A stretch of DNA of 64,000 bases. Source: a virus. A program made the translations under genes and the position numbers. Below are positions 4,319-50,183 of the stretch, piece by piece. Under the pieces are notes generated by a model. It was not told where the DNA came from. It ran no database searches and worked only from the letters and a program-made list of their open reading frames with translations. The first letter of the stretch is position 1. The number at the start of each line of letters is the position of its first letter. Location of the stretch: the UHGV virus genome UHGV-0311442. The stretch is one strand, 5' to 3'.

Positions 4319-4347
4319 GCTAAATCTCCTGATACGGATTAAACGTT

Positions 4348-7300
4348 ATGGCTAAAAAAGGTAAAGATGATTTCGATGAAATCGATCTTGATAACATGGA
4401 CGACTGGGACGATTTTGATGAGCCCCCTCGTCAACAAGACCAATCGCGTAACCCGGTCATGGACACATTTCGTGCTGCCCGTAAGTCGGCGTTGTCGACT
4501 ATCTGGCCCGAAAACAAACGTGATCAGGTTATTTTAAAAGGGATGCCTAAACCTGCGGCAGAAGCCTACGAAGGCTATCAAAACGTTAAAGCTGCAGGTC
4601 AAGACATTCTGGCCCATACGAAAGACGAGATTGAAAAGACGTCTCGCGTCGTCAAGATGCAAGCGAGACAGTTAGGTCCAACACTGAAACGGTATTTACC
4701 GGAATCCGTAACACGGAAAATCGACAAGTGGGCACGTAACGATCAAATCGACTATGGGAATTACGATCCTAAACAAGCGATGATGGATCGTGAGCTGGAC
4801 AGCGTGTTCTCAGGCGCACCGCAAACAGCGGACCAGCAACGTGAGGCGCAAGAGGGGATGGTTGAAGACCGCTTGCGCGACACGATTAAGGACATGAAGT
4901 CCGACGCACTGTTCCAGACCGTAATCGGTATTGCAAAAGACGTCAACTTAACGACTAGCCTAAGTCGTGGCGTGTTGTTGAATGTTCAGCGTAAGCAGTT
5001 AGAGCTGCAATATCGGACGCTGTTTGCTTTGCAGGATATTGCGAAACTCAAACAAGACGAGTTTGCACGCAACACCCCGGCATTAGAAGCCATCGTTAAG
5101 AACACGGCACTACCCGACTACGCGAAGGAAGAGTTTTCTGAAATTCGTTGGGCTAATGTAAAACGTAAAGCTGCGGAGTGGATGAACCCCTTACACTACG
5201 CAGATAATTTCATTGGCCAGATTCGCGAAAACGCGAAGAAGAAAATCTCGAACATCTTTAGTGATGGTCGTGGGATTCTAGAACAAGTTCTAGGGATGGC
5301 TCAGGAAGATGACTTTGACATGTCGGACAGCTCATCGTTGTCTCCTGACCGTCGTAACACAAACTCGCGCAATAAAGCGGCAGGTTTTGCAGGTGGTTGG
5401 TTAGCAAAACGTCTCCTACAACCACAGATCGAGCGACTTCAGAACTGGACGCGTGGCGAGCTAGAGAAAAACCCAGAAGTCATGAAACGCCTACAGTTGG
5501 CGAAGTATGGCTTTGGAAATTTGTCGTCTATTTCTAACTCGGCAATAGCGGGAGAAACAAGCGGCCCGTTAGCTGATCTGTTTCGACTAATGCACGATTT
5601 GGGGCTAGTTAACCCGCTACGTCGCGAAACGTTAGCATTAGACGATCGCTCTGCGGAATCTCTTTCTGCTGCGGCGAAGTTCGATCGTAAAGCTTACCTT
5701 AGTATCACAGAAGTTATTCCGACGTTACTGTCCGAGATTAACAAATCTATTCGTCGTGGGTATGGCGAACACCACGATCAGGTTTATGACTTGACCACGC
5801 GTGGTATGGTCGATCGTAAGGTTATTGGCAATCGTGTACGTAAGGCCGTTGCTAATGACGATCAGCGCAAACGTTTACAGACGTACATCAACGACACTGT
5901 CGACTTTATCGATAAAGATAAAACGCTTGATAGGAAAACACGTCAAGCGTTAGCGGACTACATCGAGTCTCGTGCCTCAGAAGGGAAAGCGTTCGATGTA
6001 GGGTCTTTATTGAAAGACCCGATGCACATGTATCGTTACATGAACGCAAACGCTGTGGAAGCGATTCAGGGTGTTTTAGAAGCCCGTTCTGCGGAACTGG
6101 TTGGTGGACACCATGAACTGAGTAACGCGATTTCAAACAAAATCGCCGCTATCCAGTCAACGATTCGCGCACGACAGGACACTGTTGATGCTGCGTCTGT
6201 GATTTACGGCGAGAATGCACTTCGTGATTCCGGTATTTTTAAATACGATGCGAAGAAAGACATTTTCGAGGTCGATAAGGACATTAACGATCCCTATACG
6301 TTATTTAATGACCTGTCGATGGGTAAGACCCGCTCTGGACGTTCGTTAACCCGTGAGCAAGAGATTCAGCGTAAATTGCAAAACGGTTCTGCGCTGGGTG
6401 ATTACTTGCGACGGATGGGTGCAGGCGCAGAGCCGAGCTTTGAAGACAAAGAACTGTCCAATGTACGTGGCGGTGGAAAAGGAGGTCGTGGTCGCGGTTT
6501 AAGCGCACGCCAACTCGCTGCGGTACTTTATGGAGAGAAATCCACTAACTTTGTTGAACTGTTAAGCAGTCGTCCAGACACGAACGCCGGGTTGGAACAG
6601 CAATTCGACCGTTTGATTGATGCTGTACGTAAACAGCCCGAATCTAGCATCGTGCAAGACATCCTCAAACACGTTAAGAACATGGATGAGGAAGGTATTC
6701 TTCTAGCCAGTTTAGGCGGTAGTCGTGATGACGGTGACGAACCTGAAAGTTCGGGTGAATCAGGCCGTAAACGTCGTCGTAAGCGCAAACGTATTGTACT
6801 AGGCGAGACAGGTTTGTTACGTCGCTGGGCTGGGGTGCTTTGGGATACCGGTTCTGGTGTAGGACGGTTTGGTAAGAATCTGTTCCTACGTGGGAAAGAT
6901 CGCCTACAAGCATTAGGTGGTTTTATTCGTGGGAAATTCTCAGGCGGTTCCTCCGAAGGTCCTGGCGTATTTAGCCGACTGAAAGGGTTAGTAACTGGTA
7001 CATTATCGACGGGTTGGAATTCTGCTGTAGCTTTCGGTAAAGGCGTTTTAGGCGTTCGCGACATCTACGATGAACGTGGTAACGTCGTATTACAAGGAAG
7101 TCGTTTAGAAGCTGGGGAATATTACCAGGCTGACCCGAAAACTGAGAAGCTGATTCAACTTAAAACTCTCGACGATATTAAACTGGGACGTGACATCGTC
7201 GACGAAGCGGGTAATTTAATCTTAGCTGCTGCTGATTTGGCTGCCGCAGGTAAACTGCGTTTCTACAAAGGCGGTAAAGTTCAAGCGCTTTTCCAGTACA

Positions 7301-14378: not shown

Positions 14379-15203
14379 CGCCAAGTCTGCTTCTTTTACA
14401 AAGATGCCGTCGGCGTTCAGGTAACCTTTACGGTCTTTGATTTCGTGCCACGCCAAAGAGAAACAATGGCGAATGTTAAGACGGTAGTAAAGAGCCAGTT
14501 TTGCAAGACGGTGCAAAGCCCAACTTAACGTAACGGTGTCCAGTTCAGTACATAAGAACGCAGTAGCGAAGATTTCAGTAGCCTCTAAATACAACTGGTG
14601 TGGATATTTGGTATCGTTTAAACGTTCTTCAACGTCAGCGACATCGTCTACCTGCAACTGTAAACCGTGATCGATGACTTCACCGGTTGACATTCCGCAA
14701 GTCTCTCTGTCTTTATCCAGTTCCAGGATGTTTACCAGAACCACCAATGCATCCCCGATACCGTCCATGATCAGTTCAGGTTTGTTTTTACTGATACCTG
14801 TTGCGATTTCACCAAACTCTTCAAAGAACTTCGTGATTTGTGTTTCCACTTTACCGTTGTCGAGGATACCACGTTCCTTAGACCAACCTTTAACACGCTC
14901 TACACAGTTCTCGATAGAATAGACCGGAACCGCTACGGTGTGCATTACCGTACCGTTAAATTCGGCACCTGTAAGTTTAAGCGGCGCTTCAATCGTTTCA
15001 ATATCCAGTTCCTGATTGCCGGTGTGGCGTTTACCTTCTACACGAACACGGTTAGTACCAGGATTTACTCCGATGGTGTAGATAGCATCAAACTGAATCG
15101 CTTTCTCGTCCATAGCGCGTAGTTGTGTGTTAACTTCTTCCAGGAAGTTACCTGGGTTAAGAACGATGTTGTAGATAGCGTTGATGTTAAAACGTTCGCC
15201 CAT
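14373..15203 (-). CDS. MazG-like nucleoside triphosphate pyrophosphohydrolase domain protein with unknown N-terminal domain
   Basis: 276 aa; FFEEFGEIA...ELIMDGIGDALVVLVNILEL matches the MazG EExxE / D-x4-L pattern; ATG with GGAG upstream. Confidence 0.45.
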   Translation of the reverse strand: MGERFNINAIYNIVLNPGNFLEEVNTQLRAMDEKAIQFDAIYTIGVNPGTNRVRVEGKRHTGNQELDIETIEAPLKLTGAEFNGTVMHTVAVPVYSIENCVERVKGWSKERGILDNGKVETQITKFFEEFGEIATGISKNKPELIMDGIGDALVVLVNILELDKDRETCGMSTGEVIDHGLQLQVDDVADVEERLNDTKYPHQLYLEATEIFATAFLCTELDTVTLSWALHRLAKLALYYRLNIRHCFSLAWHEIKDRKGYLNADGIFVKEADLAK

Positions 15204-20730: not shown

Positions 20731-22021
20731 AATAGTCTTCCACGATTTTATCGGTAGACTGGTAACTTACACTGCCCGCAGCAATCACGTAATTACGTTT
20801 CTCAGTGGTCAGTAGCGCCTGAATCGCATTTACGCCTGCATAGGTGTAAAGTTTAAGTTCAGTCATTTCCGGCGTGATGTTTTTCGCTTTGTCCCACTTT
20901 GCATCTAATCCTTTAAATAGCGTTAATAGACGAGTACCATACGTTTTGAAACTGACACCAGGTTCAACCCGTAGGTTAGCCATGAGGTTCTGGATAACGG
21001 TGGCTGCGATCTGGGTCCCTTGTCCCGGTTGCAGTTTATCCAGATAGTATTCCGTTGAATCGAGATTACCTGTCGCTGCCGCCTGAATCATCAACTCGCC
21101 GTACAGTACCTCTTTCGCTTGTGCATCAGTAATCGCTTGAAGCATCGGCTCAATTTTAGCCGGTAAACCATAACTGTTCAGTTTGGTAGATAGGCCATAA
21201 ATCAGCGCTGAAGAGGTATTAATGTCTAACGTGGAGAAACTGTCGCTGCCTTTAAAGCTGTTAATCAGGTTATCGATGGCTAAGAAGTCGTCTAAGTCTT
21301 TGTAGCTGTCGAAAGTATGTTGTACGTCATCAACGATCGAGGTGATTTGATAACGCATACTGTTGACTTCAGACATAAACCCGTTGACTTCTTGGCTAAC
21401 TTCCGAGGGGAGTTTAGCCAGTTGCCCAGCAATGTTCATCGTCCCTTCGAGACGTTTTTTCACCGAGTTAAAGTCAGTACCGATACCTGATAAAACAGAG
21501 TCGGTTAAGCTGCCGATGCTGTCCCACCCTTTACCTAACAGCTTCCCCATTCCACCTGGACTTAGGTAGTCTAACGCCTTTAGACCATCTTCATCCTTTT
21601 TCTTAAAGGGTTCAGAAACGTCACGCTTTTGTGGGTCGAGGACAGGAAGCGTTTCTTTGGTGTTAGATGCAAAACCGGGAACCTTTTGTCCTGGCGACAC
21701 CCCCGAGGCTGAACTCCCCGCAGTCTTAGTTCCCCCAACACTGGCGGTATCACTACCGCCAAAAAGGTTACCAATTTTGCTGGTCAGCTCGTTACCACCG
21801 CTAAGCAGTTTGTTGAATGTTTCACCAGCACGTTCTGATAATCGGTTGACGTTATCGACCGTGTTCTTAATACCACGCTCCGCATTTTCCACCGTTGTTT
21901 GTACGCGGTTTGCGGCGTTCTTTGCCGTATTAACGGAATTATCGATTGCCGACTGACCTTTATTTATCTGACTGGTTATTTGGTCGATTTTCATTCTGGT
22001 CTCCAATTTGGTATTCGTCAA
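20720..22021 (-). CDS. Hypothetical protein with coiled-coil N-terminus (433 aa)
   Basis: Long ORF; N-terminal 100 aa rich in Q/N/K/E heptad-like sequence, Gly/Ser-rich linker. Confidence 0.55.
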   Translation of the reverse strand: MTNTKLETRMKIDQITSQINKGQSAIDNSVNTAKNAANRVQTTVENAERGIKNTVDNVNRLSERAGETFNKLLSGGNELTSKIGNLFGGSDTASVGGTKTAGSSASGVSPGQKVPGFASNTKETLPVLDPQKRDVSEPFKKKDEDGLKALDYLSPGGMGKLLGKGWDSIGSLTDSVLSGIGTDFNSVKKRLEGTMNIAGQLAKLPSEVSQEVNGFMSEVNSMRYQITSIVDDVQHTFDSYKDLDDFLAIDNLINSFKGSDSFSTLDINTSSALIYGLSTKLNSYGLPAKIEPMLQAITDAQAKEVLYGELMIQAAATGNLDSTEYYLDKLQPGQGTQIAATVIQNLMANLRVEPGVSFKTYGTRLLTLFKGLDAKWDKAKNITPEMTELKLYTYAGVNAIQALLTTEKRNYVIAAGSVSYQSTDKIVEDYFAI

Positions 22022-22805
22022 GGTTTACCGTGACCTGAACTTCGTAGATTTTATTGTCTTTCTGACGCCTTAAAGTCAAAAGGATTTCGAAACTACGAAC
22101 ATCAATTGCCTTGAGTACCCTCATAAACCATTTCCAGGAAAACTTCTTTTTTAACCTTAGATTGTGCTGCATGTTGTGTCGCAAATCATTTCGTTTCGAC
22201 GGTGTTTGCTCACAGTTAGCAGGATCGTTAACGAAGTTTGTGGAAAGACGGTACCACCAGTCCGCATTCATTTTCATGTTTGCGAAGATAGTCCAAGTTA
22301 ACCGAGATAACGGATGTACCATCATCTTTGCGGTCTCACCACAGTTCTGGAAATAACGGTTCAGTTGCGCAGTTGCAGACTCTTTAGGTCGTTCGTCGTT
22401 ATCTTCGAACAAATCCCGAGCGAGATCTTCACGCACGCGTGTGGTAATTTCAGATACGGTTTTTGTTTTGAAGTGTCCTCGGTAAGTGGTTACACAAATC
22501 CGCAGTGTCTCCACTCCGGTAATCACCAACCCTTCTGTAAAACCTCGCCAGGTAAGATCGACAGGTAGTGCAGGGATGTTACCTGAACTCAGCTTCGTGG
22601 AGATACGTTGTATTCGATCGTCCATCGTTGCTTTTGAACGTGTTTTAAATTCTGGAGACAGAATATGTTTGGCGACGGCGAGTTTATAATCCGAAGGCTT
22701 CCATCCGATCAATTCTTTATAATTCCAATATAGTGTTTGAAGTGGTCCGCCTGCACGTTCGTCTTCAGCGTCCACGACCACACTTACTTTTTTGCTATCC
22801 ATCAC
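21960..22805 (-). CDS. Hypothetical protein (281 aa)
   Basis: ORF with ATG start. Confidence 0.5.
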   Translation of the reverse strand: MMDSKKVSVVVDAEDERAGGPLQTLYWNYKELIGWKPSDYKLAVAKHILSPEFKTRSKATMDDRIQRISTKLSSGNIPALPVDLTWRGFTEGLVITGVETLRICVTTYRGHFKTKTVSEITTRVREDLARDLFEDNDERPKESATAQLNRYFQNCGETAKMMVHPLSRLTWTIFANMKMNADWWYRLSTNFVNDPANCEQTPSKRNDLRHNMQHNLRLKKKFSWKWFMRVLKAIDVRSFEILLTLRRQKDNKIYEVQVTVNLDEYQIGDQNENRPNNQSDK

Positions 22806-22835
22806 ATCACCTTGTTACAAGGGGTTACTGGTTTA

Positions 22836-23384
22836 TTAAATAGGACGTTCTAAAAGGTAGTGTTCAATCAACGTTTCCAACTCCCGGAATAAATGCGCAG
22901 TTTGATTTACCAGCGCTTTGTCTTCGTCGGACTCCGGTTTAAGGAACGCCGATTCATAGGGTTGAATTAGCGCGAGTAATTTACCCAGCTTATAAGCGGC
23001 AACCTCAGGACTGGACGTCCCAAAATAAGTGTCTAGCCATCGGTATTCCGCCAAGTCGTTTCGTTTATTTAAAGCGTCAGGTAATGGTAGCCATTCGATT
23101 GAACTCCTGTTAATTGCTCGTTGGTATTCATTAATGAGAAATGCCAAACGTTGATAAACGAGATCAATGTTATTAATACGCAATTCGAGGAAACCGCGAA
23201 GGCTGGGACGAAAGGGTTCTTCATTTATGTTTAAAGGCAACGTAAGCAATTGTAAGCCGGTAAAGACTCTGACATAGGGGTTGTGGGTGTTCTTATGGAA
23301 CTCCTGCTTCAGAGACTCTCTGAGGGCTTTTAAACGATTATTCTCTAACCGTTGTTTAAAACGAGTTATTATTCCTGTTAACAT
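22836..23384 (-). CDS. Hypothetical protein (182 aa)
   Basis: First gene of a minus-strand run; divergent from the plus-strand gene at 23456. Confidence 0.5.
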   Translation of the reverse strand: MLTGIITRFKQRLENNRLKALRESLKQEFHKNTHNPYVRVFTGLQLLTLPLNINEEPFRPSLRGFLELRINNIDLVYQRLAFLINEYQRAINRSSIEWLPLPDALNKRNDLAEYRWLDTYFGTSSPEVAAYKLGKLLALIQPYESAFLKPESDEDKALVNQTAHLFRELETLIEHYLLERPI

Positions 23385-40723: not shown

Positions 40724-41233
40724 TTAGAAGAACGGCTGGTTTGGAATGACAGCGTACTCTAAAATGAACATGTGTTCTGGGGCGTCTTCTTTACGCCAGA
40801 CTTTGTGCGTCGTCACAAGTTTTTCCAGAATCGTTAAAAAACTACGCTGGCAGTATGTGTTTTCACCAAGCAGTAGATTTTGAAGTTCTACAGTAGCGTC
40901 CATATACGCCTGTTTAAAGACTAAACTACGATTATACTGTCCGGTAAAATTCCAAAGCAAGACTTTCCCTTCTTCGGTTTCTTTTACCGTTGGCCGTAAA
41001 CCACAAATCCACAACAAGGCAAGGTTGACGTTCCAGTCAAACTCTAAACCTTCTTCTTCGTCATCACCGAATGCTGTGGGTAAAGCATCGTAAAATTCGT
41101 GTTTCTCTGCGAATTCTTCATCTGACTTAATCTCGTCTTCGATGCTGCTTCGGACGATACTGTAAACGTCTTTCGCGGTCAATTGTGCGGCTTTTGTAAT
41201 GCCTTTATACCAATCGGTTACTACGATGCTCAA
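40724..41233 (-). CDS. Hypothetical protein (169 aa)
   Basis: ORF between the lytic transglycosylase and the membrane protein. Confidence 0.5.
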   Translation of the reverse strand: MSIVVTDWYKGITKAAQLTAKDVYSIVRSSIEDEIKSDEEFAEKHEFYDALPTAFGDDEEEGLEFDWNVNLALLWICGLRPTVKETEEGKVLLWNFTGQYNRSLVFKQAYMDATVELQNLLLGENTYCQRSFLTILEKLVTTHKVWRKEDAPEHMFILEYAVIPNQPFF

Positions 41234-41955
41234 AGGGTAACTCCTCTATTGATTGGAAAACTCGTGTTTATCGTATCCCAAATTTTACTAACTTCCGCCA
41301 ATTGAATCTGACGTGGTGTTTTCTTCGCAAACGCAAGCTGACGTGGGGCCGAGCCCACAACAACAGGCACATCGATTTTCGCGCTATAGAACGCGGCGTC
41401 TTTCATAAAGCCTGCCATTTCTCGTTGTGCTGCTCGAGATTTGCTTTTGATTCGCGTGTGAGCGCCACTTTCACCCCAGTGGTAAGCTAACGCAACTTCA
41501 GCCATGGTGGGCTTGCGTTTGAGTCGTTTGGTTAACCCCTTTTCAAGATGTTTAACATACGCGGCAGCCAGCAAAACAGCATTACGCGGATTATACAAAT
41601 CGGCGTTCTGACTAAGACCTAATTCTTTTCCATAAAGCCTTAGCAGATTACGCTTGGTACTTGGAAGCATCTGTACCAGGCTGTGTGCTCGTGAGCTTTT
41701 GTTGTAAGCCTTGGGATCAAAACGCGATTCACGATAAATCAGCGTAATCATCAGCTTAGGATCAACGCCTTGCTTTCGAGAGATTTCCACAATTAACGGG
41801 CTGACTTTTTCGAACCGATGTTGGATTTGTGTAAACTCACGCTGATGCTTAGATTGCGGCGTTGATGTTGACGCCTGTGCGTTAAACGCGAAAAGTGTTA
41901 CCAGTAAAAGAAAGAAGATACGAAACATTTTGTTTCTCCAGTTGGATTTATACAT
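41230..41955 (-). CDS. Secreted or signal-anchored soluble lytic transglycosylase; endolysin candidate
   Basis: N-terminal hydrophobic segment MFRIFFLLLVTLFAFNAQA, then SLT motif LIYRESRFDPKAYNKSSRAHSLVQMLPST. Start may be the internal Met at about 41928. Confidence 0.6.
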   Translation of the reverse strand: MYKSNWRNKMFRIFFLLLVTLFAFNAQASTSTPQSKHQREFTQIQHRFEKVSPLIVEISRKQGVDPKLMITLIYRESRFDPKAYNKSSRAHSLVQMLPSTKRNLLRLYGKELGLSQNADLYNPRNAVLLAAAYVKHLEKGLTKRLKRKPTMAEVALAYHWGESGAHTRIKSKSRAAQREMAGFMKDAAFYSAKIDVPVVVGSAPRQLAFAKKTPRQIQLAEVSKIWDTINTSFPINRGVTL

Positions 41956-42020: not shown

Positions 42021-42031
42021 GATAATATCTA
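42021..42031. promoter_or_regulatory. Copy of recurrent motif GATAATATCTA
   Basis: Overlaps the stop of the macro-like gene, upstream (in minus orientation) of the lytic transglycosylase gene. Confidence 0.3.
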
Positions 42032-42589
42032 TTTAAAAGAGTTTGGAATTAATGACTCTGCTTCTCGGTACAGCTTATCGGGTAAGTATAACGTGTAGTG
42101 TTGTCTCCTCGGTTCAAGTTTTTTGTAAAGCCACAAAAAGATTTCTTGTCTTTCCCAGGAATCTAACCACCCATTTGCCATCCCCAGTGGAGGGATAGCA
42201 ACGCTGGTATCCAGTTCCTCAACACAATCTGCTAATGCGGTAATGCCCGCAGTAACATAAGAAACCTGGGACTTTAAACGCCAATGTGTTTTCGTTGGGA
42301 GCAAGATGCACTTTTCATCAGGGTAAACGTAAACGCTTCCAATCTTAATTTCGTCTTCGCGACACCGCTTACGGTAATCTTGATAAAGGTTGGGGTAGCG
42401 TTCACGGCACGCCAGTGCAATACCGCGACCCATCGCTCCTACGCAGTTAATGGTAACGACTTTATAGTCTTCGGGCGCATTAAAAAGATCGTTACCAATT
42501 TCAGATTCTTTACGTACCGTTAACATAACGAAACGCCCGGAGTTGATGTGTAGTATTAAAACGTGTACCGCCGATTGATAACTCGACAA
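42029..42589 (-). CDS. Macro-domain-like protein (putative ADP-ribose binding or processing)
   Basis: YKVVTINCVGAMGRGIALA fits the Gly-rich macro loop pattern and SVAIPPLGMANGWLD fits the second macro motif; probable start at internal Met near 42526. Confidence 0.4.
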   Translation of the reverse strand: MSSYQSAVHVLILHINSGRFVMLTVRKESEIGNDLFNAPEDYKVVTINCVGAMGRGIALACRERYPNLYQDYRKRCREDEIKIGSVYVYPDEKCILLPTKTHWRLKSQVSYVTAGITALADCVEELDTSVAIPPLGMANGWLDSWERQEIFLWLYKKLEPRRQHYTLYLPDKLYREAESLIPNSFK

Positions 42590-43250: not shown

Positions 43251-43700
43251 TTAGAATGTTTTGCTAAAATCGACCCACTCACGATCGTGCGAGTAAACCG
43301 CCTGATAGCCGCGTCGGATGAAATACTCTTTTGCTTCTTTACATTTCGCATACATGCCAGTAACAATCTCGCCGAAAACTTCATCAGCTGCAATTGCTTT
43401 GAAAATCTCTTTCATTACACCCCGTTGACGGTAGTCTGGGAGCACGTATACTGAACGTATCTTAAGTGAACCGTTACGATTCCGATAACTACAGTATCCT
43501 ACCGCGACGTCATCCTGATACACCAGAACTATGCAGTTACCTTCGATCAGTTGCCGAGCTTTTAATTTCGGTACCGACGTTTTGATTTTCAGTAACGTGG
43601 CCTGGTGGTCTAAGTAACGGTAGTGCAGTTTGAGTAAATCGGCAGCTTGTCGCTCACCGACTTTAGAAGATGCGTTCAACAAATAAATTTCCATTTGCAA
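43251..43700 (-). CDS. GNAT-family N-acetyltransferase
   Basis: 149 aa; VAVGYCSY...IRSVYVLPDYRQRGVMKEIF matches the GNAT acetyl-CoA-binding motif A. Confidence 0.65.
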   Translation of the reverse strand: MQMEIYLLNASSKVGERQAADLLKLHYRYLDHQATLLKIKTSVPKLKARQLIEGNCIVLVYQDDVAVGYCSYRNRNGSLKIRSVYVLPDYRQRGVMKEIFKAIAADEVFGEIVTGMYAKCKEAKEYFIRRGYQAVYSHDREWVDFSKTF

Positions 43701-43725: not shown

Positions 43726-43854
43726 TTAAAACCAACGCGCGATGACGAAAGCCGCAGCGGCTAATATGGCTGTGGTGATTATTAACCCACCCCATGAAAG
43801 TTCCGCGTCGTATAGTGCGGATATCGCTACATTCGTAGCGTTTATCGTGGTCAT
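43726..43854 (-). CDS. Small hydrophobic peptide (42 aa)
   Basis: ATG with GGAGCAGAAA upstream; MTTINATNVAISALYDAELSWGGLIITTAILAAAAFVIARWF; below ORF-track size cutoff. Confidence 0.3.
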   Translation of the reverse strand: MTTINATNVAISALYDAELSWGGLIITTAILAAAAFVIARWF

Positions 43855-43911
43855 TTTCTGCTCCTATCAATACCCTCACACCGGAGGGTATCTTCTGGAT
43901 TATTTGGGTGG

Positions 43912-44010
43912 TTAATCTTCGAACGCCCAACGGTGTCGTTTAATCAGCCAGTTTAAACCTTTACCAATTAACCACAACGAGCCAAGTGTTAACAGAACCC
44001 CTACAACCAT
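43912..44010 (-). CDS. Small hydrophobic peptide (32 aa)
   Basis: ATG with AGGAGAGG upstream; MVVGVLLTLGSLWLIGKGLNWLIKRHRWAFED. Confidence 0.3.
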   Translation of the reverse strand: MVVGVLLTLGSLWLIGKGLNWLIKRHRWAFED

Positions 44011-44020
44011 ATTCCCTCTC

Positions 44021-44200
44021 CTAATTCCGCCATTCGCATTCGCGTTGACGCCAAATTGAACCCCACGATAGTTTAATCAGATAAGATGAAACTACCCATA
44101 AAATCATCACCACACAAAACATGACATAAAGAACCGCTAGAATGGACATGAAGCCAAACCCTGCCGCATCCACAATACGACGGAACCAATCAGTTTGCAT
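44021..44200 (-). CDS. Small membrane protein (59 aa)
   Basis: ATG at 44198-44200 with AAGGAG upstream; hydrophobic core FGFMSILAVLYVMFCVVMILWVVSSYLI. Confidence 0.4.
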   Translation of the reverse strand: MQTDWFRRIVDAAGFGFMSILAVLYVMFCVVMILWVVSSYLIKLSWGSIWRQRECEWRN

Positions 44201-46694
44201 AAACAATTTTTACTCCTTCGTTATACACCGCAGGCAATGTCACCCCTTCCGGTTCGATGACACAGTACGATGCTTCATTAAGTTTAGAATGAACCTCGGC
44301 TTCGTGGGAGACTACCAACAGTTGTGAAAATTCTCCTGAGTTTGCTAACGTTTTAATAAAGCCGACCAGGTTGTTACGGTGCTCCTCATCCATGCCCTCC
44401 GAAGGTTCATCCAAAAGCAACGGAAACTGATGCAACTTCAGCGCTTTGTACGCAGTCAGTCTGAACATCAGATTAAATATCGCACGCTGCGCCTTTGACC
44501 CTTTACGCACGTCAGGAACAGGCTCAGGATGCGTTTTTAGCTGGACAGGAAAAGTATAATCCAAATCGCCGTCAGTGAGATCACAAGGCATAACACGCAT
44601 GGGGTACGTCCAGACCTGTTCGATATAACGCGTCATTAACTCTGTGATTCTAACGATAGCGTTGTAAAAATACTTTCTAAGTACACCCTTTTCTGGCGAG
44701 AAGGCTTGAATCATCAGTTTGTTATTGAACTGCTGGGCTTGTAAGTCAGCAAGTTCGCGTTCCAAACTGTTGAGCTGGTTCAATTCATTTTCCATCTGAC
44801 GATAACGTTCGCGTGCGGTTGTAAAAGCATCCAGCTTCCCTTCTCGTGTACGTAAGAGTTCCTCGACGACCGTATTTGTCAACGTAACCTTAACGTCACT
44901 CTCTAACCGTTCGAATAACGCACTGAAATCATCTACAGCACGTTTAACATTCACTAGATAGGTAAGTGTCGTGTTAGCCAGTTCGTGCTCTCTACGACGC
45001 ATTGAGAGCATCTCTGTGGCTTTACCTAATCGCGACTGTTGGAAGGCGATCTTTTGTTGTAAAGCACCATCGACGTTACCAACGGCCGCTACGGCATCCT
45101 GCCATTCTTTTTCCGCCTTCACTAACCGTTGTCTGGTTTCATGGTACTCAATAGCAGAGTACAACTCACCGTCAAACGCTGCGCATAGACTCCCGAACTG
45201 CTCGCGAGACTCTGTGAAAACGTTACGTTCTTGCAAACGCTTAAAGAACATACTCAAAACAGGGTCCTTTGAATACGTCAGTACAATCTCACGAACCTGC
45301 CGCATATAAGTTACATCAGATTCTAATTCAACACGATCGCGTAATAAGGTCTCTAACTGCGTTTGCAGTTCCGTGCGCTGCTGTTGCTGTCCACGAATCG
45401 AAGACTCAAGTTCAGGCAAAGAACGCGTAACGCCTGGTCGAAACTTAAACCGACACTGCGGACAATCCACTTCCGCTGTTTCTAAGTAGTGGTTACGTTC
45501 GTGATTTAAATTCTGTAAAACGTTCTCCACTCGCTGGAGTCTATCCCGCAACCCGGCGGTTTTTTGATCCATCACCAGAAGCCGTTCTTCCAAAACATTG
45601 AGTTTTTCGGTCGAATGAATTGCGTCCAGCGTTGTTCCTAACCGTTGTCCCCAAACACGCGCGTCGGTAGCCGCACGAAGTTGGTCTAAATTGACGTTAT
45701 CGTTAAATAGACCCGGAAAGAGATGTTCAGTGTCCCATTTGGTAAGTAACTCACGTAAACGTGCCAGCGTATTCTTGAGACCTTCGTGATTCCGCATCAG
45801 GTAGTCCTGTCGTGTCGACTCATCCATCAATAACGACAAGTCTTTATTCAACATCGATACCTCTGTTTCAGTAGACACGACAGCTTCGCGGGCGGTCGCC
45901 TCGTTTTGTCGTGCGACCTGTATCTGTTCATCAGTAGGCAGACCACCACGATGTTGTAATATTGCGTCGATGGTTGGACCCAAGCTGTTTAATGACGCTT
46001 GGATTGTTTCGATGGTGACGCCGCGATTTAATCCTGGCAACTGTTCGATTTCTCGGTTCAGTTCACGTAAATCCGATTCCAAACCTTTTAATCTCGTCGC
46101 TAACTGCTGCCGTTCTTCCTCGTTCTCAATAACACGCGTCCGTAATTCGGCGATCTTACGGCTGGTGATTTCAATACCCCCATTTAAGGCAGTAAGGTTT
46201 TTACGTAAACGTTGATAAAACCCTAACGCGTAAGTGAGGTCAGAGGTGCTTAAACGGTAAAACCACTTGCGACGTAATTCGGTTCCCGCATCGGTTAACA
46301 AGACCTCACCATTTAATAGTTCTTTAATTTCTTTCGTAATACCCGTGATTTCTTCAACACGGGAGTTGTAGACTTTCGCATTACCTTGCTCGACGATCTT
46401 TGCCCCCGTGGTCAGGTTCTCAATATCACAAACCAAAGAGTTGCCTTTACGGGCAACTTTGAATCGATAGCGTTGATCGCCGACTAAACAGTAATTCGTG
46501 TAAGAACCGCCGTCCCTGAATTCAGTTTTAGCTGGTGCTAAGGGTAAGAACACAGACAGTAGACTGGTTTTCCCGCAGCCGTTCCCACCCAGGATAATTG
46601 TTGTTGGAGACTGGATAGTGAAATCGAAGGTTTCAATTTCATGTAACCCCATCCCCGTAAAACCTTTGAGTATAATGCGTTCAACTTTTAGCAT
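44190..46694 (-). CDS. Rad50/SbcC-like ATPase with coiled coil and CxxC zinc hook
   Basis: Start refined to ATG at 46692-46694 (GGAGGTG upstream; track start is TTG at 46769). Walker A GGNGCGKTS, long coiled coil with central CPQC, C-terminal LLLDEPSEGMDEEH and VVSHE. Confidence 0.75.
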   Translation of the reverse strand: MLKVERIILKGFTGMGLHEIETFDFTIQSPTTIILGGNGCGKTSLLSVFLPLAPAKTEFRDGGSYTNYCLVGDQRYRFKVARKGNSLVCDIENLTTGAKIVEQGNAKVYNSRVEEITGITKEIKELLNGEVLLTDAGTELRRKWFYRLSTSDLTYALGFYQRLRKNLTALNGGIEITSRKIAELRTRVIENEEERQQLATRLKGLESDLRELNREIEQLPGLNRGVTIETIQASLNSLGPTIDAILQHRGGLPTDEQIQVARQNEATAREAVVSTETEVSMLNKDLSLLMDESTRQDYLMRNHEGLKNTLARLRELLTKWDTEHLFPGLFNDNVNLDQLRAATDARVWGQRLGTTLDAIHSTEKLNVLEERLLVMDQKTAGLRDRLQRVENVLQNLNHERNHYLETAEVDCPQCRFKFRPGVTRSLPELESSIRGQQQQRTELQTQLETLLRDRVELESDVTYMRQVREIVLTYSKDPVLSMFFKRLQERNVFTESREQFGSLCAAFDGELYSAIEYHETRQRLVKAEKEWQDAVAAVGNVDGALQQKIAFQQSRLGKATEMLSMRRREHELANTTLTYLVNVKRAVDDFSALFERLESDVKVTLTNTVVEELLRTREGKLDAFTTARERYRQMENELNQLNSLERELADLQAQQFNNKLMIQAFSPEKGVLRKYFYNAIVRITELMTRYIEQVWTYPMRVMPCDLTDGDLDYTFPVQLKTHPEPVPDVRKGSKAQRAIFNLMFRLTAYKALKLHQFPLLLDEPSEGMDEEHRNNLVGFIKTLANSGEFSQLLVVSHEAEVHSKLNEASYCVIEPEGVTLPAVYNEGVKIVYAN

Positions 46695-46772
46695 ACCCAC
46701 CTCCATAAAGACGGAGTGTGGTGTAAAAAGAAAAAAATAAAGAAAGGGAGAACCCGAAGGTTCTCCCAAACG

Positions 46773-47381
46773 TTATTTGGTGTACAGGTGATAACCCATT
46801 GAAGTCCAATAATCGACGTTCTTCGTGTTTTCTACCCAAACCTGTCCCGCCTTTGTGGCTAAGACTTCCATTGTCAATGTACAGATCAGATTTGTTACCG
46901 GGATACAATTTCCAGGTGTAACATCATCCAGATAAACCGGATATAAAAACGGCGATTTAATGGATTGGTACGGGTAAGAATAGTGGCTACCGACCTTCCA
47001 CCCTTCTTCTACAGGACAGAGATTAAAAGTGCGTGTTTCAGGAACTGCGTTTTCAGAGATCCAGTTAACAACATCGGCTTTAATTCGATCGTGGTCGATA
47101 TAGTAGAACACAACACGTTGTGGGATACTTGTGGTACCAGCCGGGTCTAAAGCCTCCAACGCCTTAAAAGGCGACGTTAACAATGTTGTACTGTTCTCAA
47201 GCGCGTAAACCAACTTTTCGTAAGCAGTCGGTGTTTTACGTTTAAAATATTCCCGTAAGCGAGGGTATGCCAGGAAGCCCTCTACTTCTTCTTCCATTAA
47301 GTCAATGAATAAAGGCGTATGCGAAAAGCGTTCTGCATTTTGCATCGCTTCAAGAAAACGAACTAATGTAATTTCGTTCAT
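46773..47381 (-). CDS. Hypothetical protein (202 aa)
   Basis: ORF upstream of the Rad50-like gene; no metallophosphatase motifs. Confidence 0.5.
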   Translation of the reverse strand: MNEITLVRFLEAMQNAERFSHTPLFIDLMEEEVEGFLAYPRLREYFKRKTPTAYEKLVYALENSTTLLTSPFKALEALDPAGTTSIPQRVVFYYIDHDRIKADVVNWISENAVPETRTFNLCPVEEGWKVGSHYSYPYQSIKSPFLYPVYLDDVTPGNCIPVTNLICTLTMEVLATKAGQVWVENTKNVDYWTSMGYHLYTK

Positions 47382-47401: not shown

Positions 47402-47430
47402 AAAAAAAGAAGCCCCGAGTAAACGGGGCC
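47402..47430 (-). terminator. Rho-independent terminator (minus strand)
   Basis: Stem GCCCCG/CGGGGC, loop AGTAAA; A-run on the plus strand upstream. Confidence 0.55.
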
Positions 47431-47942: not shown

Positions 47943-47971
47943 TAAAAAGGACCCCGGACGTACCGGGGTCA
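47943..47971 (-). terminator. Rho-independent terminator (minus strand)
   Basis: Stem GACCCCGG/CCGGGGTC, loop ACGTA; A-run on the plus strand upstream. Confidence 0.55.
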
Positions 47972-47980
47972 AGACTACAC

Positions 47981-48370
47981 TCAATGATCTAATTCAATAG
48001 CACCAGCCATCTTGCCCCGTTCTTCGATAACAATCAGATAACGGTCGCGAGATTTGCTTTTAGCGAGAGTTAAGACAACAGTAGGGTCGCATGTTTTCGT
48101 GGTGATAGGAAGAACCTCTCTTTCGACGGAATCGAGCAGAAAGTAATAACCTGCGGGACACATTGTGCCACCGTCAGCTTTTACCAGAATATAGCGCCCG
48201 TCTGCGCCGACTTCTTGGCAGATTGTTTCACCGACTTCGCAAACTTCAAACCCCGGAGGATTGTACTGATAATCGGTATTGTTGTTTGGGGTTAGCAGTA
48301 AATCGTTAACTTGAGTAGATGCTGCTACACTCAGGGAGAAGAAGAATGCTAAAACGCAGACGAGACGCAT
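47981..48370 (-). CDS. Secreted Cys-containing protein S1 (129 aa)
   Basis: Signal peptide MRLVCVLAFFFSLSVAAS; CEVGETICQE and GRYILVKADGGTMC match S2. Confidence 0.55.
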   Translation of the reverse strand: MRLVCVLAFFFSLSVAASTQVNDLLLTPNNNTDYQYNPPGFEVCEVGETICQEVGADGRYILVKADGGTMCPAGYYFLLDSVEREVLPITTKTCDPTVVLTLAKSKSRDRYLIVIEERGKMAGAIELDH

Positions 48371-48380
48371 GAGTTACTCC

Positions 48381-48791
48381 TTAAATTTTAAGTTTATCCA
48401 TAGCTACAACGATAGGTTTTTCCGAAGTGTCTAATATCCCTACCATTGGCACACCATCTACGACTTCGAAGAATGGTTTGTTATTACCAGAGCATAGACG
48501 TTTGTCGTTGTATTCGAGACGTTGGGCCTTCCACGTTTCGAGGTTGAGTACAGACATTGGGCTGTCGTAGCACCAGGCACCACCTTGCTCAACGATGAAT
48601 ACGTATCTGCTACCTTTGTATTTAAACAGACTCTTCGCCTGACAGTACAACCCGTCAATTTCCGTACAATAGAAATCATCGGTGCTATTGACGTATTTAA
48701 TATTGTCTGGCAACTGAATCGTCTTTGCTGTAGCGTTGACAGAGAACAGAACAGCCATTGCAATGAGAAGAGTGTTGATGATAGTTTTCAT
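48381..48791 (-). CDS. Secreted Cys-containing protein S2 (136 aa), paralog of S1
   Basis: Signal peptide MKTIINTLLIAMAVLFSVNATA; CTEIDGLYCQA and SRYVFIVEQGGAWC match S1. Confidence 0.55.
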   Translation of the reverse strand: MKTIINTLLIAMAVLFSVNATAKTIQLPDNIKYVNSTDDFYCTEIDGLYCQAKSLFKYKGSRYVFIVEQGGAWCYDSPMSVLNLETWKAQRLEYNDKRLCSGNNKPFFEVVDGVPMVGILDTSEKPIVVAMDKLKI

Positions 48792-48802
48792 GATAAAAGT
48801 CC

Positions 48803-49288
48803 TTAGTATTTAGATTGTTCTACGTATTTCTTAACCAGGTAAGCGAATTCAGCAACACCGATATCACCGAACCAAATCAGGTAACCGGGGTCGATGTTGT
48901 AGTAATAGCCGACGAGTTTCTTGGTGTGTGGGTTGTATAGCGTTACGATGTATTCCCAACCACAAGCGTTAGCTTTACAACCGCCGCTTTCAATCCAGAT
49001 TTTGTTGTTGATATTTACCGGATACATGTTACCGCCAGGGCCATCCATGTAACCTTTAGAGCCGAACATACCATCCAGTCCCACAGGGTCTAGTGTTTTA
49101 TCAACAACGGCTTTAAACGACTTATCGGTATCGTACAAGTCGTTGATGTTTGGGCACGCATTTGGCTGACCTTCCCAAGCGTTTCCATCGCAGGTAAGCA
49201 ATTCGTCTACGGAGGCCGCATCTACAGTTGGCGTGGCACCGATAAACAAGAAAACCAGAAAGAACATCAGTGTATGTAAACGTTTCAT
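48803..49288 (-). CDS. Secreted protein S3 (161 aa) with CKxxxC disulfide-loop motif
   Basis: Signal peptide MKRLHTLMFFLVFLFIGATPTVDA; GGCKANACGWEYIV weakly recalls the Ivy CKPHDC loop context. Confidence 0.5.
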   Translation of the reverse strand: MKRLHTLMFFLVFLFIGATPTVDAASVDELLTCDGNAWEGQPNACPNINDLYDTDKSFKAVVDKTLDPVGLDGMFGSKGYMDGPGGNMYPVNINNKIWIESGGCKANACGWEYIVTLYNPHTKKLVGYYYNIDPGYLIWFGDIGVAEFAYLVKKYVEQSKY

Positions 49289-49306
49289 TGTAACTACTCC
49301 TTTAGA

Positions 49307-49699
49307 TTATTCGGCAGGACGATTTAAGGTAACGCGTCCGATTAATTCGGCGTTGTGAAAGAAGTCCACAGCGGTATAATTACCAACGGATAATGGGTGA
49401 ATACTAACTGACATTACTTTCGGTTGTTCGCAAGCAATATCGGTTAGACGTTGGTAGACTTGCGCACGGGTGTCAGCAATGAGTAACCCCGTACACGCTT
49501 CACCACGCACTAAACGATAAACTTGCAGTTTACCGAAACTGCGCATTAACGTAGGCGTCTCATCCGGGTTGATAATCGGTGAGTCAGGAGCCGGTTCGTA
49601 ATAGCGGACATCCGAATCACCGAAAGCATAAGTGCCAGTAATTCCGACCGCACAGAAAATAATGATAGTATAAAGTATAGTTCTGATATTCATTTTCAC
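49307..49699 (-). CDS. Secreted protein S4 (130 aa)
   Basis: Signal-peptide-like N-terminus MKMNIRTILYTIIIFCAVGITGTYA; two Cys in mature part. Confidence 0.5.
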   Translation of the reverse strand: MKMNIRTILYTIIIFCAVGITGTYAFGDSDVRYYEPAPDSPIINPDETPTLMRSFGKLQVYRLVRGEACTGLLIADTRAQVYQRLTDIACEQPKVMSVSIHPLSVGNYTAVDFFHNAELIGRVTLNRPAE

Positions 49700-49721
49700 G
49701 CACTCTAAAAAAGATTAATAG

Positions 49722-50183
49722 TTATTTGTTAGGACGGGTGTGCCCACAGTTTTGGAAGAAAGTTTCAGATAAACGATCGCCTTCTACGGTAAAGTTAGCG
49801 GCATCGTTACCATTGATACTCACACTGAAAGTTTTGGCATTACCGATAGCATTAACGAAAGCAACCCAAGCGTGTTCTGCCTTGTCACTACCGTCCACGG
49901 TAGGGATGTTATAGGTTTTGCCGTTTACGACAATATCCATCGTGTTATCTTCAGCGTTAGTTGCACCTACGGGTTCCCCGTAATACCAAACCATGCGACC
50001 GTAAAATTTGCGATTCGCAGTTTCAGTGTCACAGTTGATAGACAGTCCGTTTCCGGCGGTGTCTTCAATTTCGTAAACTGCCTGGCCAGGGTTTTGTATT
50101 TGTTCCCAGCTGTTGATAGCGGCGTGTGCAGTATTGAAACCGATTACGAAAAGGGCGATTAAAAAGGAAGTGAAGATTTTCAT
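49722..50183 (-). CDS. Secreted protein S5 (153 aa)
   Basis: Signal peptide MKIFTSFLIALFVIGFNTAHAA; first gene of the secreted-protein run. Confidence 0.5.
   Translation of the reverse strand: MKIFTSFLIALFVIGFNTAHAAINSWEQIQNPGQAVYEIEDTAGNGLSINCDTETANRKFYGRMVWYYGEPVGATNAEDNTMDIVVNGKTYNIPTVDGSDKAEHAWVAFVNAIGNAKTFSVSINGNDAANFTVEGDRLSETFFQNCGHTRPNK

Follow-up and report, generated by a model that had tools for sequence, protein, structure and literature searches.

Does a Rad50/SbcC-like ATPase gene without an Mre11/SbcD gene beside it encode a protein that works alone, or one half of a nuclease whose other half lies elsewhere in the genome, and what are the short hydrophobic open reading frames (ORFs) that follow it? 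The locus in question lies in a 64-kb stretch of phage DNA (hereafter the window), and an original prediction had described its ATPase as an 'orphan', with the nuclease partner either encoded elsewhere or replaced by a different functional context. Here, we analyzed the ATPase, the genes on both sides of it and the corresponding regions in related phages. All features described below are encoded on the minus strand of the window.

Source phage and its lineage

The window is part of the genome of an uncultivated jumbo phage that belongs to the family Chimalliviridae (nucleus-forming, phiKZ-like). A megablast search with the locus yielded zero matches among GenBank phages, and relatives surfaced in protein-level searches, with Erwinia phage Asesino as the nearest isolate (71% aa; 70.9% aa between the ATPase and Asesino gp207). 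Local synteny with Asesino is kept, including the small ORFs and the genes for a GNAT protein, a Macro domain protein and an SLT lysin. The closest relative found, contig IMGVR_UViG_3300029126_000001, shares 97.6% nucleotide identity with the window and represents the same species, and a further contig (..._113438) shares 94%. A protein identical to the ATPase of the window is not on record, and exact 40-mers matched only a contig of 93-94% identity. The lineage is new at the species or genus level, and its probable host is Salmonella.

An SbcC/Rad50-type ATPase with a central zinc hook

The ATPase gene (44190..46694) starts with an ATG at 46694, ends with a stop codon at 44190 and is preceded by a Shine-Dalgarno sequence (GGAGGT) 6 nt 5' of its start. 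It lies where originally predicted and encodes 834 aa, the earlier length of 835 aa having included the stop codon. The Walker A motif, coiled coils, central CPQC and C-terminal signature and Walker B motifs that had been reported for this protein are all present in its translation and AlphaFold2 model. In the translation, the Walker A motif or P-loop GGNGCGKTS comprises residues 36-44 (46563..46589), and 19 orthologs, those of phiKZ and RAY among them, all retain G36, N38, G39, G41 and K42. The C-terminal ATPase motifs (44385..44501) consist of a signature-like GSKAQ (44487-44501) followed by Walker B and the D-loop PLLLDEPSEGMDE (44385-44423), both read from the translation, and an H-loop VVSH (S796, H797; 44304..44315) was located by translation and ortholog alignment. 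Residues S733, Q736, P758, L759, D762, E763, D769 and E770 are invariant in the 19 orthologs, as are PLLLDE, the D-loop Asp and the SH of the H-loop. GSKAQ is a degenerate signature that replaces SGGQ/E and retains S and Q, and the ortholog alignment shows no clear counterpart of the glutamine in the Rad50 Q-loop; the ATPase cycle may thus differ in detail.

The AlphaFold2 model (pLDDT 83.4) consists of a head, a helix of ~250 aa (residues 150-405), a hook, a second helix of ~240 aa (residues 426-664) and a second head segment. This fold-back coiled-coil architecture yields a split ABC head, with Walker A in the N-terminal part and the signature, Walker B, D-loop and H-loop in the C-terminal part. 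The CPQC motif (residues 411-414; 45453..45464) is located between the two helical arms at the apex of the coiled coil, almost exactly in the middle of the 834-aa protein, is followed by F-x-P-G and is the sole CxxC of the ATPase. In 19-41 orthologs, this single CxxC is unchanged, as are Walker A, Walker B, the D-loop and the H-loop. F418, P420 and G421 do not vary either, and C411 and C414 are kept family-wide, phiKZ and RAY included. CPQC is thus a predicted zinc-binding hook that takes the place of an SMC hinge.

In agreement with the Rad50/SbcC-like identity proposed originally, the ATPase matches phrog_77 ('SbcC-like', E = 2.5e-91), and the best profile and fold matches come from archaeal and eukaryotic Rad50: the family profile retrieved Rad50 first from the PDB (P. 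furiosus and M. jannaschii, E = 7e-10), while Foldseek placed C. thermophilum Rad50 at the top for the model (E = 4e-18). Pfam SMC_N reached 34.3 bits, under its cutoff of 40, the NCBIfam Rad50 model matched with E = 2.6e-10 at a score far under its cutoff, and alignment of the ATPase family with a single E. coli SbcC sequence (hhalign) gave a short local match in a coiled-coil segment only. The ATPase shares about 27% aa identity with PHIKZ165 over half its length. It is an ortholog of phiKZ gp165 and Asesino gp207 and a core gene of the Chimalliviridae, and in phiKZ no transposon insertions are tolerated in orf165 (PMC12676376).

The fold and sequence matches also include the Lamassu LmuB, JetC and retron PtuA ATPases, as would fit a component of defence or counter-defence, such as a sensor of the LmuB or PtuA type or a protein that serves as a decoy to systems of the host. 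However, these matches are weaker than those to Rad50, and the gene is a vertically inherited, essential core gene and not part of a variable island, has no effector nuclease adjoining it and co-occurs with an Mre11-type partner; a role in defence is therefore extremely improbable.

A distant gene for the SbcD-like partner nuclease

The earlier finding that neither neighbouring gene encodes a metallophosphatase can be extended to the whole 64-kb window, in which none of the 56 ORFs has a Pfam Metallophos match, the top tblastn match to the SbcD-like protein of the clade has E = 2.2, and the order of Mre11 motifs is absent from every ORF. The contig of the same species, in contrast, encodes SbcC at 53.7-56.2 kb and an SbcD-like protein at 143.1-144.2 kb, a gap of 87 kb. 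Because this same-species genome contains an SbcD-like gene, albeit far away, the ATPase gene is not an orphan. The SbcD-like protein matches phrog_100 ('SbcD-like') with E = 1.2e-59, and its Asesino counterpart matches phrog_100 with E = 4e-67. Both genes are also present in contig ..._113438, and in IMG/VR the nuclease is encoded by 10/11 ATPase-bearing contigs, the exception being a partial contig of 107 kb. Asesino gp44 is annotated as 'putative nuclease SbcCD D subunit', and phiKZ gp065, which is SbcD-like in RefSeq, is encoded 113 kb from gp165. Of the two options that the original prediction had left standing, a partner encoded elsewhere is hence the supported one, and a different context is not.

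The nuclease motifs, compared in 9 orthologs, are DxH (I), GDLF[DE] (II), EGTxSHD (III), MHG (IV) and HDH (V), with D22xH24, G57D58, H101D102, H180 and H212xH214 invariant. Motif III contains GTxSHD, a variant of GNH[DE] in which the canonical Asn is missing. Pfam Metallophos matches the nuclease with E = 0.003 and 18.5 bits against a cutoff of 21.5. Its weak PDB and NCBIfam matches are best to Mre11/SbcD, with NCBIfam scores far under the cutoffs, and hhalign of the nuclease family with a single E. coli SbcD aligned the motif V region only (E = 8.7e-5). The partner nuclease has diverged beyond the reach of the Pfam and NCBIfam thresholds, and motif- or Pfam-based scans will consequently miss it. 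No Nbs1/Xrs2-type partner is known for the phage pair; in its place, the nuclease gene is always followed by the gene for a conserved 278-aa protein, which belongs to a family of unknown function (phrog_3229, phiKZ gp066).

Split arrangement and co-distribution

Every relative examined (Asesino, SPN3US, phiKZ, RAY and the same-species contig) encodes an SbcD/Mre11-like nuclease, always unlinked from the ATPase gene and separated from it by 87-160 kb. The lack of an adjacent Mre11 gene, from which the orphan status had been deduced, is therefore normal for all Chimalliviridae and gives no ground for calling the ATPase an orphan in future scans. Among GenBank phages, the ATPase is found in 290 records and the nuclease in 305, with identical numbers (ATPase/nuclease) in phages of Pseudomonas (81/81), Erwinia (62/62), Serratia (21/21), Aeromonas (19/19), Klebsiella (16/16) and Ralstonia (13/13), a near-identical distribution as expected for obligate partners. 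SbcC and SbcD have been described as 'practically universally conserved' in jumbo phages (PMC7824862), and 065 and 165 are both core genes with knock-down phenotypes (PMC12571901); the main text of the RAY core-genome paper makes no mention of SbcC or SbcD. The locus is thus that of a known, split SbcCD pair, already catalogued among the core, essential genes of this phage family. Its significance extends little beyond annotation, the useful points being the normality of a distant Mre11 gene, the divergence of the nuclease and the conserved membrane mini-proteins that one sub-lineage encodes directly after its ATPase gene.

[quoted passage not shown] The ATPase and nuclease genes are adjacent in no Chimalliviridae genome examined, Smc5/6, condensin and MukB are the Foldseek runners-up behind Rad50, and both the signature and the Q-loop depart from the canonical motifs, all of which would fit such a role. 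Yet the protein contains a CxxC hook and not an SMC hinge, Rad50 ranks first in both the sequence profile and the fold comparison, the phages that carry the SbcD-like gene are almost exactly those that carry the ATPase gene, and neither a kleisin-like gene nor any other gene for an SMC accessory protein was detected next to the ATPase gene. Furthermore, gene scattering is general in these genomes, as exemplified by the dispersed RNA polymerase subunit genes of Asesino. We thus regard an ATPase acting independently of the nuclease as quite unlikely.

Proposed function and comparison with known systems

Most probably, the phage has its own DNA-end-processing nuclease of the Mre11-Rad50-like (SbcCD) kind, the genes for which lie far apart in Chimalliviridae genomes, and the gene studied here provides its Rad50/SbcC-type ATPase subunit. 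By analogy with Rad50/SbcC and T4 gp46/gp47, two ATPase chains would pair via their zinc-coordinating CPQC hooks and via ATP-dependent engagement of their heads. The heads would associate with DNA ends or hairpins and bring into place a dimeric SbcD-like metallophosphoesterase, encoded about 87-150 kb away, which in turn would cut and resect the ends, and the products could feed recombination-dependent replication and repair of the phage genome in the phage nucleus. While end processing for recombination-dependent replication is established for T4 gp46/gp47, we infer by analogy that the two proteins of the phage studied here form a complex, act as a nuclease and take part in replication.

The pairs phiKZ gp165/gp065 and Asesino gp207/gp44 share length, motifs and hook of the ATPase with the window, and are unlinked. 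T4 gp46/gp47, T5 D13/D12 and E. coli SbcCD likewise combine a coiled-coil ABC ATPase bearing a CxxC hook with a metallophosphoesterase nuclease, and belong to the same PHROGs families as the proteins described here (SbcC-like, phrog_77; SbcD-like, phrog_100). In T4 and T5 the two genes are adjacent and co-transcribed, as are E. coli sbcDC, whereas they are 87-160 kb apart in the relatives of the window. The clade represented by the window also differs from E. coli, T4 and T5 in its signature GSKAQ and in nuclease motif III, which reads GTxSHD instead of GNH[DE]. Cellular SbcC and SbcD show marginal sequence similarity to the phage proteins, and eukaryotic Rad50 has a longer coiled coil than the ATPase of the window.

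Region upstream of the ATPase gene

Upstream of the ATPase gene, a gene for a 202-aa protein (46773..47381) was identified, which belongs to a family of unknown function (phrog_9964). Between the two genes lies a GC-rich hairpin followed by a T-run (46746..46767), which resembles an intrinsic terminator and probably marks the start of a new transcription unit. A scan for sigma-70 promoters found sites no more numerous than in shuffled sequence; because these phages transcribe with their own RNA polymerases, we make no promoter claim. The 202-aa protein has no Pfam or NCBIfam match and just four homologs in a large protein database, and its AlphaFold2 model, of moderate quality (pLDDT 71.5), matched PDB folds with E = 0.07 at best, none of them significantly. 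Its gene adjoins the ATPase gene only within the SPN3US/Asesino group and is absent beside phiKZ gp165 and RAY gp23. The protein was considered as an alternative nuclease partner and rejected, as it lacks nuclease features and its linkage to the ATPase is absent in phiKZ and RAY.

Predicted small membrane proteins encoded downstream

As described originally, three short hydrophobic ORFs of 59, 32 and 42 aa follow the ATPase gene, and each contains a hydrophobic segment with a mean Kyte-Doolittle value > 2.1. Small ORF 1 (59 aa; 44021..44200) has a conserved Y-x-x-F-C and a C-terminal CEWR and matches phrog_16515 (E = 1e-4), small ORF 2 (32 aa; 43912..44010) contains a conserved LGSLWLIGK...GWAF and matches phrog_13448 (E = 6.6e-14), and small ORF 3 (42 aa; 43726..43854) has a C-terminal transmembrane helix ending in RWF. 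No Pfam match was obtained for them at E <= 1, and the PHROG families matched are of unknown function. A Shine-Dalgarno sequence had been proposed for each; good ones precede small ORF 2 (AGGAGAGG) and small ORF 3 (AGGAG), whereas small ORF 1 has just a GGAG, 12 nt upstream. From its ATG, small ORF 1 overlaps the final 11 nt of the ATPase gene, an overlap that is kept in Asesino and SPN3US. Together with the distant GGAG, this overlap suggests that small ORF 1 is translationally coupled to the ATPase gene and does not depend on a strong Shine-Dalgarno sequence of its own.

In comparison with the relative L053, dN/dS values are 0.33, 0.30 and 0.19 for small ORFs 1, 2 and 3, respectively, and an 84-aa alternative frame overlapping small ORF 3 is broken in L053. 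The original prediction had allowed for the case that nothing would speak for translation of the small ORFs; they are instead conserved across genera and under purifying selection, and look like real genes. Using tblastn, they were found only in the SPN3US/Asesino/Machina group, and they are absent beside phiKZ gp165 and RAY gp23. Taken together, the small ORFs are predicted to encode clade-restricted, single-pass membrane proteins that are co-transcribed with the ATPase gene.

This linkage and the translational coupling would be explained if the three peptides and the ATPase formed a functional module, e.g. for membrane anchoring or regulation, a reading favoured by the conserved overlap of small ORF 1 with the ATPase stop codon and by the synteny of the ATPase gene and small ORFs 1 and 2 in three phage genera. 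However, the peptides are limited to the SPN3US/Asesino/Machina group while the ATPase is family-wide, and their number and identity vary between genera from 3 to 5 (3 here versus 4-5 in Asesino/SPN3US). They also evolve much faster than the ATPase, for which dN/dS is about 0.02, albeit in closer comparisons (L058 and L052). In addition, a DNA-end nuclease inside a protein-walled nucleus would have no obvious need for a lipid-membrane anchor, and we consider a shared module improbable. A combined scenario, in which the ATPase is partly uncoupled from the nuclease through separate timing or import and also serves as an SMC-like organiser or end-tether, with the mini-proteins of the SPN3US/Asesino group linking it to a membrane step such as the early infection vesicle, appears very improbable. 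Most likely, the small ORFs encode accessory membrane proteins outside the nuclease machine, and co-transcription is the only link to the ATPase seen here.

A holin or pinholin identity of the small ORFs was also considered and rejected, given that they match no such family and are not adjacent to a lysin gene. Four unrelated genes separate them from the gene for the SLT-domain lysin, which lies another 1.8 kb downstream. One of the membrane mini-proteins is unannotated in the Asesino record.

The SbcC-like ATPase

The ATPase locus sits among consecutive minus-strand genes of the window. Its ORF extends from an ATG at 46694 to 44190 (minus strand), encodes 834 amino acids (aa) and is preceded by GGAGGT 6 nt 5' of the start codon. 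All ATPase motifs of the original prediction were found in its translation, which contains a Walker A motif GGNGCGKTS (46563-46589), a CPQC at residues 411-414 as the sole CxxC (45453-45464), a signature-like GSKAQ (44487-44501), Walker B and D-loop PLLLDEPSEGMDE (44385-44423) and an H-loop VVSH (44304-44315), all on the minus strand. The protein was assigned to phrog_77 of PHROGs ('SbcC-like subunit of palindrome specific endonuclease', E = 2.5e-91), and both Pfam SMC_N (34.3 bits, cutoff 40) and the NCBIfam Rad50 models scored under their cutoffs. Across 19 aligned orthologs, including phiKZ gp165 and RAY gp23, the invariant positions comprise the P-loop residues, the hook cysteines C411 and C414 and the F-x-P-G after them, S733 and Q736, the Asp-Glu pair of Walker B, the Asp of the D-loop and the His of the H-loop, and a PDB search with the resulting profile returned archaeal Rad50 first (E = 7e-10). 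An AlphaFold2 model (41 input sequences, pLDDT 83.4) contains two head halves linked by helical arms of ~250 residues each, which reverse at the CPQC segment. Its top Foldseek match was Chaetomium thermophilum Rad50 (E = 4e-18), followed by Smc5/6, condensin, MukB, Lamassu LmuB and JetC. Because a hook replaces the hinge and Rad50 ranks first by both sequence and fold, the protein is, as judged from sequence and model, a member of the Rad50/SbcC family, and its predicted identity as a Rad50/SbcC-like protein with a zinc hook is upheld by phrog_77, the PDB profile, Foldseek and the invariant C411/C414. The signature motif lacks its two glycines (GSKAQ where Rad50/SbcC has SGGQ/E, residues ~732-736), and the family alignment shows no evident counterpart of the Rad50 Q-loop glutamine (residues ~125-131; LNGE in the window, LTGK in phiKZ, LLGM in RAY). 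These deviations could stem from a modified ATPase cycle or from limits of the alignment.

An unlinked SbcD-like nuclease

The ATPase had been described as an orphan without an adjacent Mre11/SbcD. In agreement with the lack of a metallophosphatase neighbor, no ORF in the 64-kb window matched Pfam Metallophos or had the Mre11 motif order, and tblastn of the window with the SbcD-like protein of this clade found nothing (best E = 2.2). The upstream 202-aa protein (46773-47381, minus strand), proposed for inspection in the original prediction, was rejected as the nuclease partner, as family, domain and fold searches yielded nothing suggestive of this role. It belongs to phrog_9964, a family of unknown function, matched neither Pfam nor NCBIfam, and its model of moderate quality (pLDDT 71.5) had no significant match in a PDB fold search. 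Furthermore, its gene adjoins the ATPase gene only in the SPN3US/Asesino/Machina group and not in phiKZ or RAY, and the two genes are separated by a terminator-like element, a GC hairpin with a T-run (46767-46746, minus strand).

Erwinia phage Asesino encodes a 'putative nuclease SbcCD D subunit' (gp44, 21690-22910), located 148 kb from its ATPase gene gp207. Pfam Metallophos matches gp44 marginally (E = 0.003), and all five phosphoesterase motifs (DxH, GDLF[DE], EGTxSHD, MHG and HDH) are invariant in 9 SbcD-like orthologs. These proteins belong to phrog_100 ('SbcD-like subunit'; the Asesino protein scores E = 4e-67, the IMG/VR copy from the same species 1.2e-59), and their best, weak PDB and NCBIfam matches are Mre11/SbcD. 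The nuclease was identified by tblastn in 305 phage records and the ATPase at the protein level in 290, and the two sets have almost the same make-up by genus, with counts (ATPase/nuclease) for phages of Pseudomonas (81/81), Erwinia (62/62), Serratia (21/21), Aeromonas (19/19), Klebsiella (16/16) and Ralstonia (13/13). Among IMG/VR contigs with the ATPase, 10 of 11 also encode the nuclease, the exception being a 107-kb fragment. ATPase and SbcD-like genes are located at 53.7-56.2 and 143.1-144.2 kb in the same-species contig IMGVR_UViG_3300029126_000001 (225 kb; 97.6% DNA identity to this part of the window), at 169 kb (gp165) and 55-56 kb (gp065, RefSeq name 'SbcD-like...') in phiKZ, and at 29 and 193 kb in RAY. 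The phages with a matching ATPase are nucleus-forming Chimalliviridae, in whose examined genomes the two genes always co-occur and are never adjacent. SbcC and SbcD have been described as 'practically universally conserved' in jumbo phages (PMC7824862), phiKZ orf165 as a conserved, insertion-free 'SbcCD-like ABC ATPase' (PMC12676376), and 065 ('nuclease') and 165 ('SbcC-like nuclease') as core genes with knock-down phenotypes (PMC12571901). As far as the genomes of relatives show, the orphan reading therefore fails, and the partner gene probably lies outside the window. The observed gene is an ordinary feature, namely the SbcC half of the SbcCD pair, which is split and belongs to the core gene set of Chimalliviridae.

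By analogy with the established workings of Rad50-Mre11, E. coli SbcCD and T4 gp46/gp47, we infer complex formation, activity, nuclear localization and a biological role for the phage proteins: the zinc hooks and, in the presence of ATP, the heads would pair two ATPase chains, which would grip DNA ends or hairpins and permit cutting and resection by an SbcD-like dimer. The resected ends would supply the phage recombinase and recombination-dependent replication.

A conserved 278-aa protein (4146-4982 in the SbcD-bearing locus L020, Asesino gp45, SPN3US_0028, phiKZ gp066) is always encoded directly after the SbcD-like gene, and the two reading frames often overlap at stop and start. It belongs to phrog_3229 (E = 1.9e-105), has no Pfam match, is a Chimalliviridae core gene (PMC12571901) and is a candidate third component of the SbcCD-like nuclease.

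Small membrane proteins

The three short ORFs predicted after the ATPase gene are present on the minus strand: ORF 1 (59 aa, 44021-44200), ORF 2 (32 aa, 43912-44010) and ORF 3 (42 aa, 43726-43854). ORF 1 begins inside the ATPase stop region, and the resulting 11-nt overlap is kept in Asesino and SPN3US. Order and frame are kept in contigs at 97.6%, 94% and ~76% DNA identity, and dN/dS against the 76%-identical genome is 0.33, 0.30 and 0.19 for ORFs 1, 2 and 3, respectively, which argues against the ORFs being untranslated. In the same comparison, other reading frames are stop-rich and an 84-aa frame overlapping ORF 3 is broken. Each ORF encodes one hydrophobic segment (mean hydropathy 2.1-2.8) with positive charge on its C-terminal side. 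ORF 1 matches phrog_16515 (E = 1e-4) and ORF 2 phrog_13448 (E = 6.6e-14), both of unknown function, and none of the three matches Pfam. ORFs 1 and 2 are recognizable in Asesino-like and SPN3US-like genomes, and ORF 2 also in a Machina-like genome; the ORF 3 homolog in SPN3US was not detected by blast and was recognized only by eye, comparing ORF lists. Searches of GenBank phages detected the three ORFs in the closest genera only, each time right after the ATPase gene. Genera differ in how many such small ORFs they have (3 to 5). They very probably encode real, predicted single-pass membrane proteins on the same transcript as the ATPase. Because the ATPase is family-wide and the peptides are lineage-restricted and fast-evolving, we regard them as accessory membrane proteins and not as nuclease parts. 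The Asesino ORF 2 homolog (MEVGI.LVLGSLWL.GKAWDWIIKHKGWAF...; 14695-14790 of the Asesino locus, KX397364.2 ~173590-173685, between gp208 and gp209) is left unannotated in GenBank.

Neighboring genes

Just downstream of the small ORFs, the minus strand encodes a GNAT acetyltransferase (43251-43700) and a Macro-domain protein (ADP-ribose-binding or -hydrolyzing, 42029-42589), both syntenic in Asesino, which could function in host takeover or counter-defense. An SLT-domain lytic transglycosylase (41230-41955, minus strand; Pfam SLT E = 1e-14; 'putative endolysin' in Asesino) has a signal-peptide-like N-terminal segment, MFRIFFLLLVTLFAFNAQAST, and may therefore be exported independently of a holin. 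Just upstream of the ATPase block, five successive small genes (129, 136, 161, 130 and 153 aa; 47981-50183, minus strand) start with Sec-type signal peptides and encode predicted secreted or periplasmic proteins. GC-rich hairpins with a T-run follow each of the 129-, 158- and 202-aa genes (47950-47970, 47411-47430 and 46746-46767, minus strand), and 9 terminator-like sites occur in 5 kb compared to 5.0 +/- 2.2 in shuffles, which suggests gene-by-gene termination or RNA-processing signals.

Phage lineage and probable host

Megablast of the locus against GenBank phages gave no match. In protein comparisons, the ATPase shares 70.9% identity with Asesino gp207, 52-60% with its SPN3US-like and Machina-like counterparts and ~22-27% with the orthologs of numerous jumbo phages, among them phiKZ (PHIKZ165) and RAY. 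Asesino shares the local gene order of the window: 158-aa and 202-aa genes, ATPase, small ORFs, GNAT acetyltransferase, Macro-domain protein and SLT lysin. In addition to the same-species contig, an IMG/VR contig (..._113438, 221 kb) is 94% identical to this part of the window at the DNA level. The host is probably Salmonella, since NCBI lists under Salmonella enterica a hypothetical protein with 97% identity to the 202-aa protein, encoded on a contig of 222,779 bp. The window phage is an uncultivated, probably Salmonella-infecting new member of the Chimalliviridae. The 99%-identity cluster of the ATPase comprises 285 member sequences from sequencing-run assemblies; together with the Salmonella-labeled copy of the 202-aa protein, this lineage therefore seems to be frequently carried in Salmonella isolate data.
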